A DNA stretch of 64,000 nt from Candidatus Sericytochromatia bacterium (GCA_036676985.1 JAKFBU010000027.1:128001-192000); one strand, 5' to 3'; positions 16,281 to 33,947 are shown, counted from the first letter of the stretch. Program-made: numbers and translations. The notes: generated from the sequence alone by a model not told the origin.

Positions 16281-19088
16281 ATGCAGGACCTCACGGCAGT
16301 GACCGCTCCGGCGGAGCAGGCGCCCCCTCTCACCCCCAAGAACGGCTGGGTCTGGCCCAAGCTCAGCGATCCCCGCTGGCCCTTCGCGATCATCCTCTTG
16401 ACTTACGCCGTCCTGGGCAGCACGCTCCTCGGGTTCAACCGCAACCCCTTCCAGATCCTGCTCACCACGGCCGTCGGGGCGCTCCTGGACGTCGGCCTGC
16501 GCTGGCTGCTGAAGCGCGAGAAGGTCTTTCCCCTCAGCGCCATCATCAGCTGCACGTCCATCTCGCTCCTGCTCAACTACTCCCACAACTACTGGCTGCT
16601 CTTCGTGCCCGTCTTCCTGACGATCGGCTCCAAGTACGTCTTCACCTTCAAGGGCAAGCACGTCTTCAACCCGTCCATGTTCGGCGTGGCCATGTCGCTG
16701 CTCGTCACCAACGACCTCGTCACGACGGCCCCCGCCTACCAGTGGGGCGGGACCATGGCCATGTCGATCTTCATCGTCATGGCGGCGCTGGTGCTCTTCG
16801 TCTTCCGGATCGGGCGCAATCCCCTCATCATCTCGTTCCTGGCGTTCTACACGCTGCAGACGGCGCTGCGAGCCTGGGTGATGCGCCACCACCTGCCGCC
16901 CGAAACCCTCTTCCTGGGCACCCTGACCTCGGCGCCCTTCTTCATCTTCACCTTCTACATGCTCACCGACCCCCAGACCTCGCCCAAGACGGCCAAGGGG
17001 CAGGTGGCCTTCACCTTCGCGCTGACGCTGGTGGACCTCTACCTGCACTTCAAGGAGAGCGTCTTCACCTTCTTCTACGCCGCCCTCCTCATGGCCGTGG
17101 GCAAGTTCCTGTTCCTGCATGGCCGAGAGTTCGTCCGGTCGGGCCCCTGGCAGCACCTGCGCACCTCCCTGTTCAACCGTGAGAAGCTGGCCGCCTTGGG
17201 CGTGGTGGGCGGCCTCGGGGCCGGGATGCTCGGTGGTTACCAGGCGGTGTTCGCCACCCAGATCAAGCCCGCGGACGTGGGGTTCGGCCTGCAGCGCCTG
17301 ACGCCCGAAGCGACGGGCATCCACACCGAGATGGGCGACGTCTTCCACGAGGTGGACCCGCGTCTGCAGCACGTCGCCAAGTGGCTCCTGTCGGTCGGGG
17401 ATGCGGTCGCCGTCGGGGACTACGACGGCGATGGCCGGGTGGACCTCTTCCTGACGAACCCCTTGAAGCGTCCCGCGGATCGCTGCGCGCTGTACCGCAA
17501 CATGGGGGGCTTCCGGTTCGAGCGCGTGTCCGTGCCGGCCTTCGACGCGGTGGCCCGGAACCCCGTCAAGTTCGGCCTCGCCTCGGCGGCGAGCTTCGCG
17601 GACATCGACAGCGACGGCGACCAGGACCTCTTCATCGCCTTCGGCTACGGCAAGAGCCGCCTGTTCGAGAACCTCAAGGCCCAGACGGGCAATCCCGGGT
17701 TCCGCGAGATCACGGTTTCGGCGGGCATCGACGAGCACACGACGAGCCTCGCCGGCAACTTCTTCGACTACGACCGAGACGGCAAGCTCGATCTACTGAT
17801 CGCGAACGCCGTCACGCCGTATCTGCCGGAGTACAAGGAGCCGACGCCGCTCAACCTCTTCGACCTGCCGCAGCCGGAGTACGCGGGCGATCGCCGCATG
17901 TTCAAGTTCATGCACAACGGCTGGCACAACGCCGACAACGGCGGCCTCAACGCGCTCTACCGCAACCTCGGCAACGGCCGCTTCGAGAAGCAGGACGTCA
18001 AGGCCATCGGCATGCCCGAGACCCACTGGACGCTCGCCATCGGCACGGGCGACCTGAACAAGGACGGCTGGACGGACCTCTACCTCGCCTCCGACTTCGG
18101 GCCGGACGACCTGTACCTGAACAAGGCGGGCAAGGGCTTCGAGCGGGTGGAAGGCCAGATGTTCGGCGACGTGGGCCGCGACACCTACAAGGGCATGAAC
18201 AGTACGCTCGCGGACTTCGATCGGAACGGCTACCTGGACGTGTACGTCTCGGACGTCCACCAGGCCCTGCAGGCCGAGGGCAGCCTGCTCTGGATGACCC
18301 GCCCGACCCAGGACCCCTTCCGTCCGAGCTTCACGGACGAGGCCACCAAGCGCGGGGCCCTCAACGAGCGCCGCTTTGGCTGGGGAGCGGCCGCTGGCGA
18401 CCTGAACGACGACGGCTGGCCGGACATCGTGCAGGCCAACGGCATGGTCGACGACCGGCTCGACCCCCTCATCAAGGAGGGCCGCAAGGACTACTGGTAC
18501 GTCAACCACAAGCTGATGCAGTCCGGCCCCGAGATCCACACCTACGTGGACATGTGGGGCGACCTCCGGGGCCGCACCATCTACCCCAACGAGGCGCGCC
18601 GGGTGTACCTGAACCGGGGGGATCGCGACATCAACCAGTTCGTCGACGTGGCCAAGCTGGTCGGCGCCGACGACCCGGACAACTCGCGCGGGGTGGCCAT
18701 GGCGGACTTCGACGACGACGGGGACCTGGACGTCGTCATCACGAACATGCACGGCCCCGTCTCGATCTACCGCAACGAGCTCTACGGCGCCACGACCAAG
18801 CCCAGGACGGCTTGGCTGGGTCTCACGCTCGTGGGCGACGGCAAGACGACCGCGCGCCAGGCGGTGGGATCCCAGGTGGTCGTCTCCTATTCCGAGCACG
18901 GCAAGAAGGTCGAGCAGCTGCAGGAAGTCCAGGTCATGAACGGCTTCACGGCCCAGGGGGACCAGCGCCTGCATTTCGGGCTCGGCGCCCACCAGGGGCC
19001 CGTGGAGGTGACCGTTCGCTGGTACGGCGGCAAGACCGAGACCTACCGGAACGTTCCGACCAATGGCTACCGCACCCTCCGGCAATAG
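16281..19088 (+). CDS. Fusion of RnfD/UnbU-like membrane domain and FG-GAP repeat + ASPIC/UnbV (CRTAC1-like) domain
   Basis: N-terminal TM domain with SKY..KHVFNPS and FYMLTDPQTSP; repeated D-x-D-x-DG-x2-D motifs; C-terminal LHFGLG..V.VRW. AGGAG RBS before ATG 16281. Confidence 0.85.
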   Translation: MQDLTAVTAPAEQAPPLTPKNGWVWPKLSDPRWPFAIILLTYAVLGSTLLGFNRNPFQILLTTAVGALLDVGLRWLLKREKVFPLSAIISCTSISLLLNYSHNYWLLFVPVFLTIGSKYVFTFKGKHVFNPSMFGVAMSLLVTNDLVTTAPAYQWGGTMAMSIFIVMAALVLFVFRIGRNPLIISFLAFYTLQTALRAWVMRHHLPPETLFLGTLTSAPFFIFTFYMLTDPQTSPKTAKGQVAFTFALTLVDLYLHFKESVFTFFYAALLMAVGKFLFLHGREFVRSGPWQHLRTSLFNREKLAALGVVGGLGAGMLGGYQAVFATQIKPADVGFGLQRLTPEATGIHTEMGDVFHEVDPRLQHVAKWLLSVGDAVAVGDYDGDGRVDLFLTNPLKRPADRCALYRNMGGFRFERVSVPAFDAVARNPVKFGLASAASFADIDSDGDQDLFIAFGYGKSRLFENLKAQTGNPGFREITVSAGIDEHTTSLAGNFFDYDRDGKLDLLIANAVTPYLPEYKEPTPLNLFDLPQPEYAGDRRMFKFMHNGWHNADNGGLNALYRNLGNGRFEKQDVKAIGMPETHWTLAIGTGDLNKDGWTDLYLASDFGPDDLYLNKAGKGFERVEGQMFGDVGRDTYKGMNSTLADFDRNGYLDVYVSDVHQALQAEGSLLWMTRPTQDPFRPSFTDEATKRGALNERRFGWGAAAGDLNDDGWPDIVQANGMVDDRLDPLIKEGRKDYWYVNHKLMQSGPEIHTYVDMWGDLRGRTIYPNEARRVYLNRGDRDINQFVDVAKLVGADDPDNSRGVAMADFDDDGDLDVVITNMHGPVSIYRNELYGATTKPRTAWLGLTLVGDGKTTARQAVGSQVVVSYSEHGKKVEQLQEVQVMNGFTAQGDQRLHFGLGAHQGPVEVTVRWYGGKTETYRNVPTNGYRTLRQ

Positions 19089-19944
19089 CCCCGAGCCCAC
19101 GCTCGCGAGGGATCCGGCGCTCGGCCTCTGGAACCAGTGGTACGCCGTGTCCCCGGTTGGCCGTCTGTCGAACGAACGTGAGGTCTTCCGGGTGGCGGGC
19201 CGCGAGGTGGCGCTCACCCGGGGGGCGGAGGGACGCATCCTGGCAGAGGAGGGGACGATCCTCGAGCAGGACGCCTACGTGTGGCTATTCGTCGGAGACG
19301 GCGAGCCTAACGGCCGGCCTGCGCCCCTCGGGCTCTTCCACCGCCAGGGTTATGCCTTCTCGCAGCGCACGGTCCGCGTGCGGGCCGATTATCGCTGGGT
19401 GCTCGAGAACTCGCTGGACTTCTCGCACGGGGCGATCGCCCACCCCTTCACCCAGCCGAGCTGGCTCTTGAAGCACCTCAAGGGTTTACCCCCCCTCGAG
19501 GCCACCTACCGGCCGACGCCGGAAGGCCTCGAGGTCGTCGGCAAGCTCGGAAAGCTGACGGTCTTCCACCACAGCTTCATGCTGCCGGACCGCCTCCGCC
19601 TCGTGATCCTGCCGGGCACGCCGTTCGAGGTGGAGATCGTCGTGCTCCACGTCCCCGAGGATCGCCGCAGCTGCCGGATGGAGGTCGCCCTCGCCCGCCG
19701 AGCCCTGCCCTGGGAGGGCCGCACGCCGCGCTTCGTGCATGGCTCCCTGCTGGTGCACCGCCAGGACGTCGTGATCGTCGAGGCCCAGCAGGCAGCGCTC
19801 GACGCCGGTCCTGCCATCGGCGAGCGGCACTGCGAGGCGGACGCCTACACCCTGCTCATGCGCCGCGTCCTCGCGGCCGCGGCCGACGGCGGCTGGGACC
19901 CGGGCCCGGGCGAGAGCCGGTCCATCCGGATGCGGGTGTCGTAG
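19063..19944 (+). CDS. Rieske-type oxygenase catalytic subunit lacking the 2Fe-2S binding segment
   Basis: ENSLDFSHGAIAH mononuclear-iron motif and QDVVI ligand region present; no CxH or CxxH. Confidence 0.75.
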   Translation: MATAPSGNSPEPTLARDPALGLWNQWYAVSPVGRLSNEREVFRVAGREVALTRGAEGRILAEEGTILEQDAYVWLFVGDGEPNGRPAPLGLFHRQGYAFSQRTVRVRADYRWVLENSLDFSHGAIAHPFTQPSWLLKHLKGLPPLEATYRPTPEGLEVVGKLGKLTVFHHSFMLPDRLRLVILPGTPFEVEIVVLHVPEDRRSCRMEVALARRALPWEGRTPRFVHGSLLVHRQDVVIVEAQQAALDAGPAIGERHCEADAYTLLMRRVLAAAADGGWDPGPGESRSIRMRVS

Positions 19945-33212: not shown

Positions 33213-33947
33213 TTGAGATTGATTGGCAGCGTCACCACCCCGAAAGAGCTCACCGAAACCCAGCGCGACCGCATGTACGAGCTGATGGCCGCGCACTTCG
33301 ACAACGTGGCGCGCGACACCTTCGAATCGGACCTCTCCGAGAAGCGCTGGGTGGTGCTGCTGCGCGATCGCGTCCTCGGAGAGATCCAGGGCTTCTCGAC
33401 GCTCATGCTGCTGGACGCGGTGGTCGCGGGCGAGCCCATCAAGGCCGTCTTCTCGGGCGACACCATCGTGCACCGGGAGTACTGGGGCGAGACCGAGCTG
33501 GCGAGCGTCTGGGGGAAGTTCATCTTCTCCCTGATCCACTCCTATCGCGGCACGAAGTTCTACTGGTTCCTCATCTCGAAGGGCTACCGGACTTACAAGT
33601 TCCTGCCGGTGTACTTCAAGGACTTCTATCCGCGCTACGATCGCGAAACGCCGGAGTTCGAGGCGGAGCTCATGGCGACGCTCGCGGACCTCAAGTTCCC
33701 CGGACACTACGACCGGGAGCGCGGGATCCTGCGCTTCGACGGCTCCAAGGACCGCTTAAACCACGACCTGGCGGAGGTCAGCGAGCTGCGGCTGAACCAC
33801 CCGCACACGCGCTTCTTCCACGCGAAGAACCCGGGCTACGTCGACGGTGACGAGCTCGTGTGCCTGGCCGAGCTGACAGAGGAGAACCTCCAGTCCATCG
33901 CCCTGCGGATCCTGGCCCGGGGGGCGGAGAAGACGGCCATTTCCTAG
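33213..33947 (+). CDS. GNAT-like hypothetical protein (GH3-associated)
   Basis: GFSTL, FSGDTIVHREYWG, WFLISKGYRTY, NPGY..GDEL; TTG start. Confidence 0.65.
   Translation: MRLIGSVTTPKELTETQRDRMYELMAAHFDNVARDTFESDLSEKRWVVLLRDRVLGEIQGFSTLMLLDAVVAGEPIKAVFSGDTIVHREYWGETELASVWGKFIFSLIHSYRGTKFYWFLISKGYRTYKFLPVYFKDFYPRYDRETPEFEAELMATLADLKFPGHYDRERGILRFDGSKDRLNHDLAEVSELRLNHPHTRFFHAKNPGYVDGDELVCLAELTEENLQSIALRILARGAEKTAIS

Follow-up and report, generated by a model that had tools for sequence, protein, structure and literature searches.

A conserved multi-operon gene system around a GH3 amido synthetase and two GNAT-fold proteins in a Candidatus Sericytochromatia bacterium: candidate functions in amide-linked lipid formation

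Genes and protein families of the region

The region under study (positions 16281-33947, about 18 kb) is part of a 64,000-nt stretch of DNA from a Candidatus Sericytochromatia bacterium, here called the window. Its genes lie on both strands, form five or more transcription units and are listed below with the type of evidence for each assignment.

16281..19088, + strand: A, fusion protein with a polytopic membrane domain of RnfD/NqrB-like (UnbU-like) type, beta-propeller repeats (FG-GAP) and UnbV_ASPIC at the C terminus (Pfam)
19063..19944, + strand: B, VanA_C-type catalytic half of a Rieske oxygenase (Pfam, motif)
19946..20290, + strand: R, stand-alone Rieske [2Fe-2S] domain of 114 aa (PF00355, translation)
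20271..20978, - strand: C, membrane protein with about four hydrophobic segments, start codon uncertain (hydrophobicity scan)
20984..21667, + strand: D, ICMT/PEMT-type membrane methyltransferase, actual start probably more internal (Pfam)
21712..22467, - strand: E, lipoprotein without assigned family (lipobox VAAC behind a signal-like segment)
22570..23673, - strand: F, polytopic membrane protein in which several His look conserved (hydrophobicity scan)
23659..24843, + strand: G, complete Rieske non-haem-iron oxygenase (Rieske plus VanA_C), conserved portion from about residue 47 (Pfam, motifs)
24903..25982, + strand: H, three-His-box membrane enzyme of the fatty-acid desaturase family (Pfam, motifs)
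25909..28260, + strand: I, MMPL-family RND transporter, start possibly downstream of the H stop (Pfam)
28364..29008, + strand: J, lipoprotein without assigned family, closing the G-H-I-J row (lipobox LVGC)
29063..29266, - strand: small lipoprotein ORF of 67 aa downstream of K (lipobox LTGC; third-position GC 0.85)
29393..30508, - strand: K, tandem-GNAT acyltransferase translationally coupled to GH3 (Pfam, AlphaFold2, Foldseek)
30505..32184, - strand: L, GH3-family acyl-acid amido synthetase, hereafter GH3 (Pfam GH3 N/M/C)
32211..32972, - strand: M, alpha/beta-hydrolase-like serine enzyme (thioesterase or acyltransferase), opening the M-GH3-K row (Pfam, motif)
33213..33947, + strand: N, GNAT-fold protein of a large family without a Pfam model (AlphaFold2, fold comparison)

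Every element of the gene list drawn up in an earlier note on this DNA was present in its place, including three lipoproteins, for which lipoboxes were found in E, J and the 67-aa ORF. The Pfam scan of 40 window ORFs also bore out the reported absence of KS, ACP and NRPS genes, as none of these ORFs contained such a domain. In the whole genome there were ten PP-binding and six KS matches, none of them on this contig; a large PKS of the FAAL-ACP plus KS-AT-DH-KR-ACP-reductase type is located on another contig.

GH3 is present as a single copy in the genome. Its Pfam domains N, M and C scored 192.6, 53.2 and 21.8 bits, and it aligned almost end-to-end with solved JAR1 (E 2e-23, residues 39-533). 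A P-loop-like SGGSTAASK motif is located at residues 105-113; the patterns used for the second and third nucleotide motifs gave no match. The plant enzymes JAR1, GH3.5, GH3.6 and GH3.12 share the three-domain architecture of the window GH3, but sequence identity to them is low and the context here is a bacterial membrane-lipid-type operon rather than hormone conjugation. The GH3 stop overlaps the K start as ATGA, in agreement with the translational coupling noticed before. K matched Pfam Acetyltransf_9 with 29 bits, and its AlphaFold2 model (pLDDT 91.8) consists of two GNAT domains, with MAB_4324, N-myristoyltransferase and MshD (TM ~0.58) as Foldseek matches. The second GNAT-like gene, N, had no Pfam match, yet its GNAT fold was confident (AlphaFold2 pLDDT 94; VIA Z 12.7 to NatD). 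We found 1320 N homologues at E <= 0.001, and a Pfam domain in none of the 120 listed. The structural matches of K and N were to GNATs generally, the fatty-acyl users N-myristoyltransferase, FeeM and LasI ranking not above acetyl users. The thioesterase-like character ascribed to M was recovered with a Pfam Thioesterase score of 24.3 bits, under the 26.4 cut-off, and a nucleophile elbow GHSYG at residues 154-158.

B matched VanA_C with 43.3 bits and retains the iron motif ENSLDFSHGAIAH. The CxH...CxxH motif is absent, the N-terminal domain of B having lost its [2Fe-2S] ligands. R, with 81 bits to PF00355 in a scan of its own genome and CPH...CCYH in its translation, is the missing half of B and completes the split Rieske oxygenase described earlier. 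It is 42% identical to G and 53% identical to the N-terminal Rieske domain of the K homologue P0138; such a domain is fused to K in 4 of the 33 homologues listed. In G, both the CxH...CxxH and the mononuclear-iron motif are present (Rieske 85.6 bits, VanA_C 39.3 bits). H matched FA_desaturase with 97.5 bits and has the His boxes HELGH, HFMHH and HNEHH; it scored 129 bits with the NCBIfam DesB model, under the cut-off of 500, and acyl-lipid desaturases are its nearest relatives.

The three parts of A scored 43.8 bits (NQR2_RnfD_RnfE), 127.5 bits (FG-GAP_3) and 57.4 bits (UnbV_ASPIC), and no SGAT-type flavin-attachment motif was found in it. Enediyne "warhead" cassettes consist of PKSE, thioesterase, UnbL, UnbV and UnbU. 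A joins the UnbV_ASPIC and polytopic membrane domains in one protein, but the window has no PKSE and the contig no KS or carrier-protein domain; with no PKSE found, the enediyne link suggested by UnbU/UnbV was dropped. D scored 69.3 bits for ICMT and 55 bits for PEMT, and 66 bits for the NCBIfam isoprenylcysteine O-methyltransferase, under its cut-off of 160. Neither C nor F matched a Pfam or NCBIfam model, the Atlas giving only unnamed clusters for F. A PDB sequence search with E gave no match, and J had no family match in Pfam/NCBIfam and no relative in the fetched loci.

I matched Pfam MMPL with 227.3 bits. Its nearest NCBIfam model is MmpL3, and it is not an MmpL3 equivalog, since it scored 204 bits against a cut-off of 1400. 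Mycobacterial MmpL lipid exporters work with lipoproteins, and the window MMPL likewise adjoins lipoprotein and lipid-tailoring genes, although its host is Sericytochromatia-like and not an actinobacterium.

Co-occurrence in related genomes

We analyzed the presence of these genes in 41 related genomes, which are kin of one another and not independent. GH3 orthologues (at least 48% identity) were found in 8 of the 41. Orthologues of K (at least 49%), G (at least 64%) and A were present in the same seven, all within the eight GH3 holders; the eighth, G026, is 64% complete. N orthologues (at least 55%) were found in seven of the 41 genomes. Orthologues of B, F and H occurred in the same four, a subset of the seven, and F orthologues of 54-56% identity were limited to G017, G025 and G027, where they adjoin M, H, B and C. 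M relatives were found in four of the seven (G017, G018, G025, G027), plus one 28% match in G002. By the identity thresholds used, the other 33 genomes had no orthologue-level match to A, B, F, G, H or K, but F, G, K and N have weaker, paralogue-level matches in them.

The holder genomes are spread across four families that also have non-holders, and gene order and contig placement differ between them. Locus L095 carries D, B, R, C, F, MMPL, H and an M-like gene, whereas L096 carries D, N and A on a different contig from the GH3 of the same genome. G is located beside GH3/K in six loci (L002, L006, L007, L009, L010, L011) and A adjoins N in seven (L001, L006, L011, L013, L015, L016, L096). An R-like gene adjoins B in L095 and lies immediately upstream of GH3 in L007. 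Within the system, relatives were also found for D (L012, L095, L096, L060), C (L011, 38%; L095, 43%) and the MMPL gene (L006, L007, L011, L012, L095), the last adjoined by an E relative (39%) in L011. The earlier note had proposed that its idea be given up if the genes did not co-occur in other genomes; they do recur together there, which gives good support to a single system of genes that work together. The region represents a conserved, recurring multi-operon system whose genes are functionally linked.

A wider K-N-GH3 core

An N relative is encoded in 559 of 599 scanned stretches of the contig set. Among the best-scoring 80 of these at least 559 N-centred loci, K, N and GH3 occur together in 66, from more than ten phyla, with the order K-N-GH3 in 59 of the 66; K is beside N in 72 of the 80. 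The core is usually preceded by two B12-radical-SAM genes, and B12-radical-SAM enzymes are used in place of oxygenases in 64 of the 80 loci. In G000, G003 and G017, no cassette-type B12-radical-SAM gene above 33% identity was detected. The three constant genes are shared, but in the window type Rieske oxygenases, a desaturase and the A fusion are found where the cassette has its B12-radical-SAM genes, and N is divergent from GH3/K, not between them. The oxygenases stand in for the B12-radical-SAM genes in this window. The core is both older than the window and more widely distributed.

In the GH3 tree, the clade of the window enzyme is sister to 60 cassette GH3s; one member of the same clade comes from a gammaproteobacterial bin with 36% GC. 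By label only, the core cassette is also present in records of DPANN archaea and CPR bacteria (Woesearchaeota, Nanoarchaeota, Nealsonbacteria, Saganbacteria). Neighbours recurring among the 80 loci were PAP2 (13), a Tes-like radical SAM enzyme (12), FA desaturase (9), alpha/beta-hydrolase (5) and a PLD/Cls-like gene (3), and in four loci an M28 peptidase is located inside the cassette. Between N/Rieske and GH3/K, L002 carries genes for three FA desaturases and one gene each for an FA hydroxylase, a CMAS-like methyltransferase and a JmjC-type hydroxylase. A literature search found no published function for the B12-radical SAM/K/N/GH3 cassette.

Proposed pathway and alternatives

GH3 enzymes adenylate a carboxylic acid with ATP and then join it to an amine. 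With the genes present, their folds and motifs, their co-occurrence and the fusion of R to K established, we infer the chemical steps and the product as follows. GH3, K and N would form a three-enzyme cytoplasmic core. The acid and amine substrates of GH3 cannot be read from its sequence; by family chemistry it would activate an acid, most likely a fatty acid in free form or a carboxylate carried by a lipid, and form an amide. K and N, judged by their fold, may transfer at least one more acyl group from acyl-CoA or acyl-ACP, and M might release the fatty acid for GH3 or serve as an O-acyltransferase like OlsI. The hydrophobic part would be modified by G, the split oxygenase B+R and the desaturase H, all oxygen-dependent; the fusion of R to K in some relatives points to B+R acting directly alongside K. 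D could cap a free carboxylate or phosphate, and the product would be carried to the cell surface by the MMPL pump together with the lipoproteins and A, a beta-propeller protein anchored in the membrane. In the order proposed in the earlier note, desaturation or oxidation would precede amidation, methylation and export.

The earlier note knew of no characterised pathway with this set, a statement that has to be revised, since a precedent for the chemistry is described for the planctomycete Singulisphaera acidiphila, in which OlsH (GH3), the alpha/beta-hydrolase OlsI and the methyltransferase OlsG make ornithine lipid, OlsH forming N-acyl-ornithine from free fatty acid and ATP (described in PMC12493201; also reviewed in PMC12971839). 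The common element is amide formation by a GH3 from a free acid and ATP, with neither CoA nor ACP, and the Ols product is a membrane lipid. The window GH3 was rejected as an OlsH equivalog (NCBIfam OlsH 59.5 bits, cut-off 620), and none of five planctomycete genomes searched had an OlsH above cut-off. In contrast to the window GH3, which is locked to the tandem GNAT and the GNAT-fold protein, the Ols pathway is without these two; its methyltransferase is OlsG rather than an ICMT-type membrane enzyme, and it has no counterpart to the two Rieske oxygenases, the desaturase, the MMPL or the UnbU-UnbV fusion. As to the acyl-chain or lipid pathway suggested in the earlier note, the single co-functional system stands, while the lipid substrate is suggested only by context: membrane tailoring enzymes, the MMPL and lipid-type genes in relatives (FA desaturases, FA hydroxylase, PAP2, PLD/Cls-like gene, Tes-like radical SAM enzyme). 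Taken as a whole, we give about even chances to an amide-linked lipid pathway combining OlsH-type chemistry with oxygen-dependent tailoring, carboxyl methylation and MMPL export.

A less likely alternative is head-group remodelling. Here, GH3, K and N would act on a polar lipid that is already present, e.g., an aminophospholipid, and acylate or amidate its amino or carboxyl group, while the tails are altered in place by radical SAM enzymes (in the window, by the oxygenases and the desaturase) and no new backbone is made. DPANN archaea and CPR bacteria are known for a limited lipid synthesis, so the core in records with the four labels named above is easier to reconcile with remodelling, or with a product other than a lipid, than with de novo synthesis, but these taxa rest on metagenome-bin labels. 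The PAP2, PLD/Cls-like and Tes-like neighbours all act on complete membrane lipids, and the acyl-lipid desaturases nearest to H (DesB model) point the same way; PAP2 and the PLD-like gene, however, are each confined to a minority of the loci, and the window has neither. Also, the characterised GH3 enzymes, i.e., the plant GH3s and the one described in PMC12493201, take free acids.

We consider it unlikely that the product is a water-soluble or weakly lipophilic small amide exported by the MMPL, such as an acylated amino acid, a dipeptide, a polyamine conjugate or a metal chelator. Pairs of a GNAT and an ATP-dependent ligase do build small N-acyl peptides, the matches of K and N include acetyl-using GNATs besides fatty-acyl users, the contig has no fatty-acid synthesis, ACP or KS gene, and the M28 peptidase at four loci would suit such a product. 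MMPL pumps are mainly lipid exporters, however; C, D, F and H are integral membrane enzymes or uncharacterised membrane proteins, and in other phyla the core has recurring neighbours from the FA-desaturase and FA-hydroxylase families.

A role in degrading or detoxifying an aromatic acid or another xenobiotic acid, with Rieske attack on a ring or methoxy group, conjugation by GH3 and GNAT and efflux by the MMPL, appears highly improbable. G and B do belong to the VanA_C/vanillate-demethylase-like group, and plant GH3s of solved structure conjugate aromatic acids, but Pfam revealed no ring-cleavage, reductase or beta-oxidation gene in the system, and the desaturase, the ICMT-type enzyme and the lipoproteins are not catabolic parts. 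The B12-radical SAM enzymes that take the place of oxygenases in 64 of the 80 loci fit poorly with aerobic aromatic breakdown. Chance neighbourhood or shared descent without joint function, to which the scatter over five or more transcription units in both orientations and the lack of relatives of J and the small lipoprotein in the fetched loci might point, was already disfavoured and is hardly credible in view of the matching presence and absence over the 41 genomes in families that also include non-holders, the linkage kept despite altered order and even altered contigs, the R-K fusion and the clade member in the gammaproteobacterial bin.

The amide-linked lipid pathway thus remains our preferred reading, and the system most likely makes, oxidises and exports an unusual, so far uncharacterised amide-linked envelope lipid.

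Gene content of the system

Coding frames in the window (67% G+C) were chosen by third-position G+C and then scanned with Pfam and NCBIfam. Positions 16281-33947 hold sixteen genes, both known and family-less, in at least five transcription units. They are flanked by genes for housekeeping proteins (DnaE, HolA, Der, CdaA, DEAD helicase, MiaE).

Genes at 16281-33947
A: UnbU-UnbV-type fusion with RnfD-like membrane domain, FG-GAP and UnbV_ASPIC
B: VanA_C catalytic domain
R: Rieske domain alone in its own gene
C: membrane protein without family assignment
D: ICMT-type methyltransferase
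E: lipoprotein
F: membrane protein without family assignment
G: Rieske oxygenase
H: desaturase
I: MMPL transporter
J: lipoprotein
no letter: 67-aa lipoprotein
K: tandem GNAT
L: GH3
M: alpha/beta-hydrolase-like protein
N: GNAT-fold protein

Several features that an earlier note had read from this DNA were borne out. The GH3 stop and the K start share the bases ATGA, as claimed for translational coupling, and the several transcription units, the three lipoproteins (E, J and the 67-aa protein) and the two membrane proteins without family (C, F) were all recovered. The claimed lack of KS and ACP genes extends to the whole contig, which is devoid of any KS or carrier-protein domain. The split Rieske oxygenase proved to be literally split into a catalytic gene, B, followed by a Rieske gene, R.

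The GH3 protein L carries three GH3 domains in one chain (Pfam PF03321, 192.6 bits; PF23571, 53.2 bits; PF23572, 21.8 bits), of which the C-terminal one falls just short of its cut-off of 23.6. It aligns with the solved JAR1 structure 4epl_A (E 2.3e-23, residues 39-533 against 37-550), and its residues 105-113 (SGGSTAASK) are motif 1-like; the approximate patterns used for motifs 2 and 3 were unmatched. L is the only GH3 of its genome, and its closest relative in the public genome collection (59% identity) lies on a contig labelled Candidatus Sericytochromatia, from a genome reported to be of the same class as the window's. M, an alpha/beta-hydrolase-like gene with a GHSYG motif, is located 27 bases upstream of GH3.

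According to work published in 2025, OlsH, the GH3 protein of the ornithine-lipid pathway (OlsH/OlsI/OlsG) of the planctomycete Singulisphaera acidiphila, uses ATP to couple ornithine to a free fatty acid (PMC12493201; review PMC12971839), and only then was a role of GH3 in making a bacterial membrane lipid shown (PMC12493201). With 59.5 bits on the OlsH model NF052613 (NCBIfam) against a cut-off of 620, L is ruled out as an OlsH equivalog; none of the 5 planctomycete genomes searched holds a GH3 above that cut-off. The sole methyltransferase found in the window's system is of the ICMT/PEMT type (D, by Pfam). What is established about GH3 enzymes, together with the 2025 result for OlsH, makes formation of an ATP-dependent amide bond the safest inference for L.

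Rieske oxygenase G has the CxH...CxxH ligands, the mononuclear-iron His motif and the VanA_C domain. B keeps VanA_C and the iron motif and is missing the Rieske ligands, which R, reading CPH...CCYH in translation, supplies from a separate gene; R was found by a genome-wide Rieske scan and not by the composition-based frame choice. About 20 kb past the right end of the window, the same contig encodes a paralogous Rieske oxygenase that shares 39% identity with G (G000:C27:212073-213047). H belongs to the membrane fatty-acid desaturase family (PF00487, 97.5 bits; His boxes HELGH at 74, HFMHH at 111 and HNEHH at 278). D matches Pfam ICMT at family level (69.3 bits) and is not an equivalog of isoprenylcysteine O-methyltransferase (NF040696, 66 bits against a cut-off of 160).

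AlphaFold2 models and Foldseek searches gave K a GNAT fold of two domains resembling tandem GNATs such as N-myristoyltransferase and MshD, and AlphaFold2 gave N a confident fold of one GNAT domain with an insertion, so that K and N together comprise up to three GNAT domains. Acetyl-using and fatty-acyl-using enzymes score alike among the fold matches of both proteins, and the modelled fold does not tell which acyl donor is used. A single prediction run of a K-N complex scored 0.00, which gives no verdict either way. The N family has at least 1320 homologues and no Pfam model; PDB sequence searches with N, K, M and E returned nothing usable, and Atlas searches with N and F returned unnamed clusters only.

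Neighbouring genes in the window
9682-10716 (+) and 15386-16192 (+): two proteins with a CxxCxxCC putative metal-chelating domain, the second directly upstream of A and without a relative in related loci
11083-12309 (+): 408-aa protein in which a LIM domain (61 bits) accompanies a DA1-like peptidase domain (62 bits), a plant-typical pairing unusual for a bacterium
14085-15311 (-): GAF and HD-GYP-type (HD_5) signalling protein bordering the system on the left, with one 37% relative (in locus L080); it may be a regulator
34169-35323 (-): DUF4015 putative glycosyl hydrolase (303 bits), immediately beyond the right-hand end of the system, without relatives in related loci
35441-35902 (+): fourth lipoprotein, just right of the system, likewise without relatives in related loci

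Co-occurrence in related genomes

Nine window proteins were searched against the same 41 related genomes, including the window's own (G000). Since these genomes are kin, the counts are descriptive and not a statistical test.

Matches to window proteins among 41 related genomes
GH3: any match in 30; at least 48% identity in eight (G000, G003, G017, G018, G019, G025, G026, G027)
G: any match in 36; at least 64% in seven, the GH3 eight minus G026 (64% complete)
A: any match in 7, the same seven as G
K: any match in 20; at least 49% in the same seven as G
N: any match in 19; at least 55% in seven
B: any match in 4 (G000, G017, G025, G027)
F: any match in 6; at least 54% in the same four as B
H: any match in 4, the same four as B
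M: any match in 6; relatives in G017, G018, G025 and G027, and one 28% match in G002

The co-occurrence check that the earlier note had called for thus returned one set of seven genomes for G, A and K and one set of four for B, F and H. The copy of N in G027 is only 36% identical, yet lies beside the GH3 gene. The seven holders are spread over four families, each of which also has non-holders; the system is thus patchily distributed and moves as one set. Membership is kept and gene order is not: in G025, D, B, R, C, F, MMPL, H and an M-like gene share one contig and GH3, K and G another, and in G017, D, N and A lie apart from GH3, K, G, B, R, H, F and M. In G018 (locus L011, 2133-3197, +), an EgtD-like histidine-specific methyltransferase gene (Methyltransf_33, 311 bits) stands between an E-like lipoprotein gene and A, a hint that the G018 version includes a step that forms a betaine.

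N, G, GH3 and K are also present in a gammaproteobacterial bin of 36% GC (L002), where three desaturases, a fatty-acid hydroxylase, a CMAS-like methyltransferase and a JmjC-type hydroxylase are encoded between them. The GH3 of this bin falls inside the window's clade in the tree, a position that points to a movement of the system between phyla. Directly after GH3-K the bin encodes an F-box and RCC1-repeat protein (12893-14494, +); eukaryote-like proteins of this kind are typical of intracellular bacteria.

A Rieske domain is N-terminal on 4 of the 33 K homologues listed, and R is 53% identical to such a fused domain; together these ties link the A-B-R unit to the M-GH3-K unit. An apparent Rieske-GH3 fusion in L007 was rejected, as the coordinates put the Rieske ORF just upstream of GH3 and in another frame. 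This leaves the Rieske-K fusions as the only ones.

Many relatives of the class also carry a paralogous system with GH3 (30-37%), a Rieske oxygenase (39%), N (39-40%), two or three small Rieske genes and MMPL (for example L093, G028:C35, and L094, G003:C19), with no K detected on the same contig. Its repetition of GH3, N, Rieske and MMPL marks these four as a recurring combination.

The K-N-GH3 core in other phyla

A collection of one genome per species, scanned with an alignment of N, gave at least 559 loci, of which the best 80 were examined. By record label these comprise Planctomycetota (31), Chloroflexota (15), Desulfuromonadota-type (7), Omnitrophota (5), Acidobacteriota (4), Bacillota (4), cyanobacterial relatives, two gammaproteobacteria, one CPR bin and four DPANN archaeal bins. 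Among these best 80, K is present in 72 and GH3 in 71; K, N and GH3 occur together in 66, and 59 of these have them on a single strand in the order K-N-GH3. One core gene is missing from 14 loci, 10 of which are short or end close to N. In the window the three genes lie within 4.6 kb.

B12-binding radical SAM genes of one family, usually directly upstream of K, were found in the same 80 loci at least once in 64 and at least twice in 48, and two such genes with K, N and GH3 make up a cassette. The pair is absent from the window, and the best match in the genome (contig C43) is 33% identical.

Further neighbours among the best 80 N loci
small DUF4345-like membrane protein: 17
PAP2: 13
Rieske oxygenase: 12
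second radical SAM pair: 12
fatty-acid desaturase: 9
SnoaL-like protein: 9
alpha/beta-hydrolase: 5
M28 peptidase: 4
PLD/Cls-like protein: 3

The one member of the second radical SAM pair that was tested reached E 1.5e-30 on the model of the tetraether synthase Tes, far under its cut-off. In L012 (G010:C36), a same-order relative keeping the radical-SAM version, an ICMT-type gene and MMPL adjoin the cassette too; the GH3 match there (9797-11427) comes in two overlapping pieces, which could be a frameshift or an assembly error.

The oxygenase type had been expected to nest within the radical-SAM type. In a quick GH3 tree, however, the window clade (7 rows, SH-aLRT 98) was sister to 60 radical-SAM-type rows, a topology that does not show direction, and the GH3 of the paralogous system fell outside both clades.

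Proposed pathway, alternatives and significance

We propose, with about even confidence, that the system yields an amide-linked lipid that is oxidised and desaturated, further acylated, methyl-capped and then exported. GH3 would form the ATP-dependent amide bond; G, B with R, and H would oxidise and desaturate the lipid; K and N, perhaps with M, would add further acyl groups; D would then cap it by methylation, and I would export it together with the lipoproteins and A. A lipid is the most likely substrate, since C, D, F and H are membrane proteins, an MMPL pump is encoded with them and the cassette has lipid-type neighbours in other phyla. The main rival holds that existing polar lipids are remodelled in place; it fits somewhat better with the presence of the cassette in organisms said to make few lipids and with the PAP2, PLD-like and Tes-like neighbours. 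A soluble amide product comes next, and the evidence for a lipid substrate speaks against it.

Other identities were rejected. The enediyne link suggested in the earlier note by UnbU/UnbV did not hold, as there is no PKSE and none of the six KS matches of the genome lies on the window's contig; a polyyne pathway falls likewise, three desaturases occurring in L002 only. A hopanoid or sterol substrate, prompted by weak SdmA, HpnJ/HpnR and HpnN/BstA matches, was dismissed because four of five cluster-holding genomes have no squalene-hopene cyclase domain and G000 has a 30-bit match only, in a 389-aa frame. A lipidated ribosomal peptide (RiPP) was discarded since no ORF of 25-89 aa near the cassette is conserved across phyla, such ORFs being common to close relatives only. 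The large PKS of the genome is encoded on contig C30 (L103, G000:C30:33000-52999), ends in a reductase domain (2189 aa, KS-AT-DH-KR-ACP-thioester reductase) and stands beside FAAL and ACP genes; the region adjoins the gene of a 1540-aa Ser/Thr kinase-AAA-TPR protein.

More tentatively, and as a reading that we hold possible though somewhat doubtful, the K/N/GH3 trio may be the invariant centre of a pathway, ancient and uncharacterised, that spans more than ten bacterial phyla and, going by record labels, CPR bacteria and DPANN archaea; this pathway would make or remodel an undescribed class of amide-bearing envelope lipids. Its oxygen-independent form would use B12-radical SAM and Tes-like C-H chemistry. 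The oxygen-dependent form, to which the window belongs, would rely on a desaturase and on Rieske oxygenases, and in some cases the Rieske domain is part of the acyltransferase protein.

GH3-dependent synthesis of lipid amides is known; we rate as new this gene system as a version of such a pathway. Nothing relevant on the gene combination and no paper on UnbU/UnbV was found in a literature search of mostly open-access texts, which does not prove absence from print. What the many other bacterial GH3 homologues do is a question posed in the OlsH paper (PMC12493201). The system places a large group of them in a definite setting that can be tested, a constant association with three GNAT domains, on a scale of at least 559 loci at one genome per species and an N family of more than 1300 proteins. 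Record labels name cultured holders of the radical-SAM version (Peptoclostridium litorale DSM 5388, Desulfuromonas sp. CSMB_57), in which a direct search for the product is feasible. The oxygen-dependent and oxygen-independent versions of one pathway would form a natural pair, of a kind that helps in tracing how oxygen use evolved and in interpreting lipid biomarkers.
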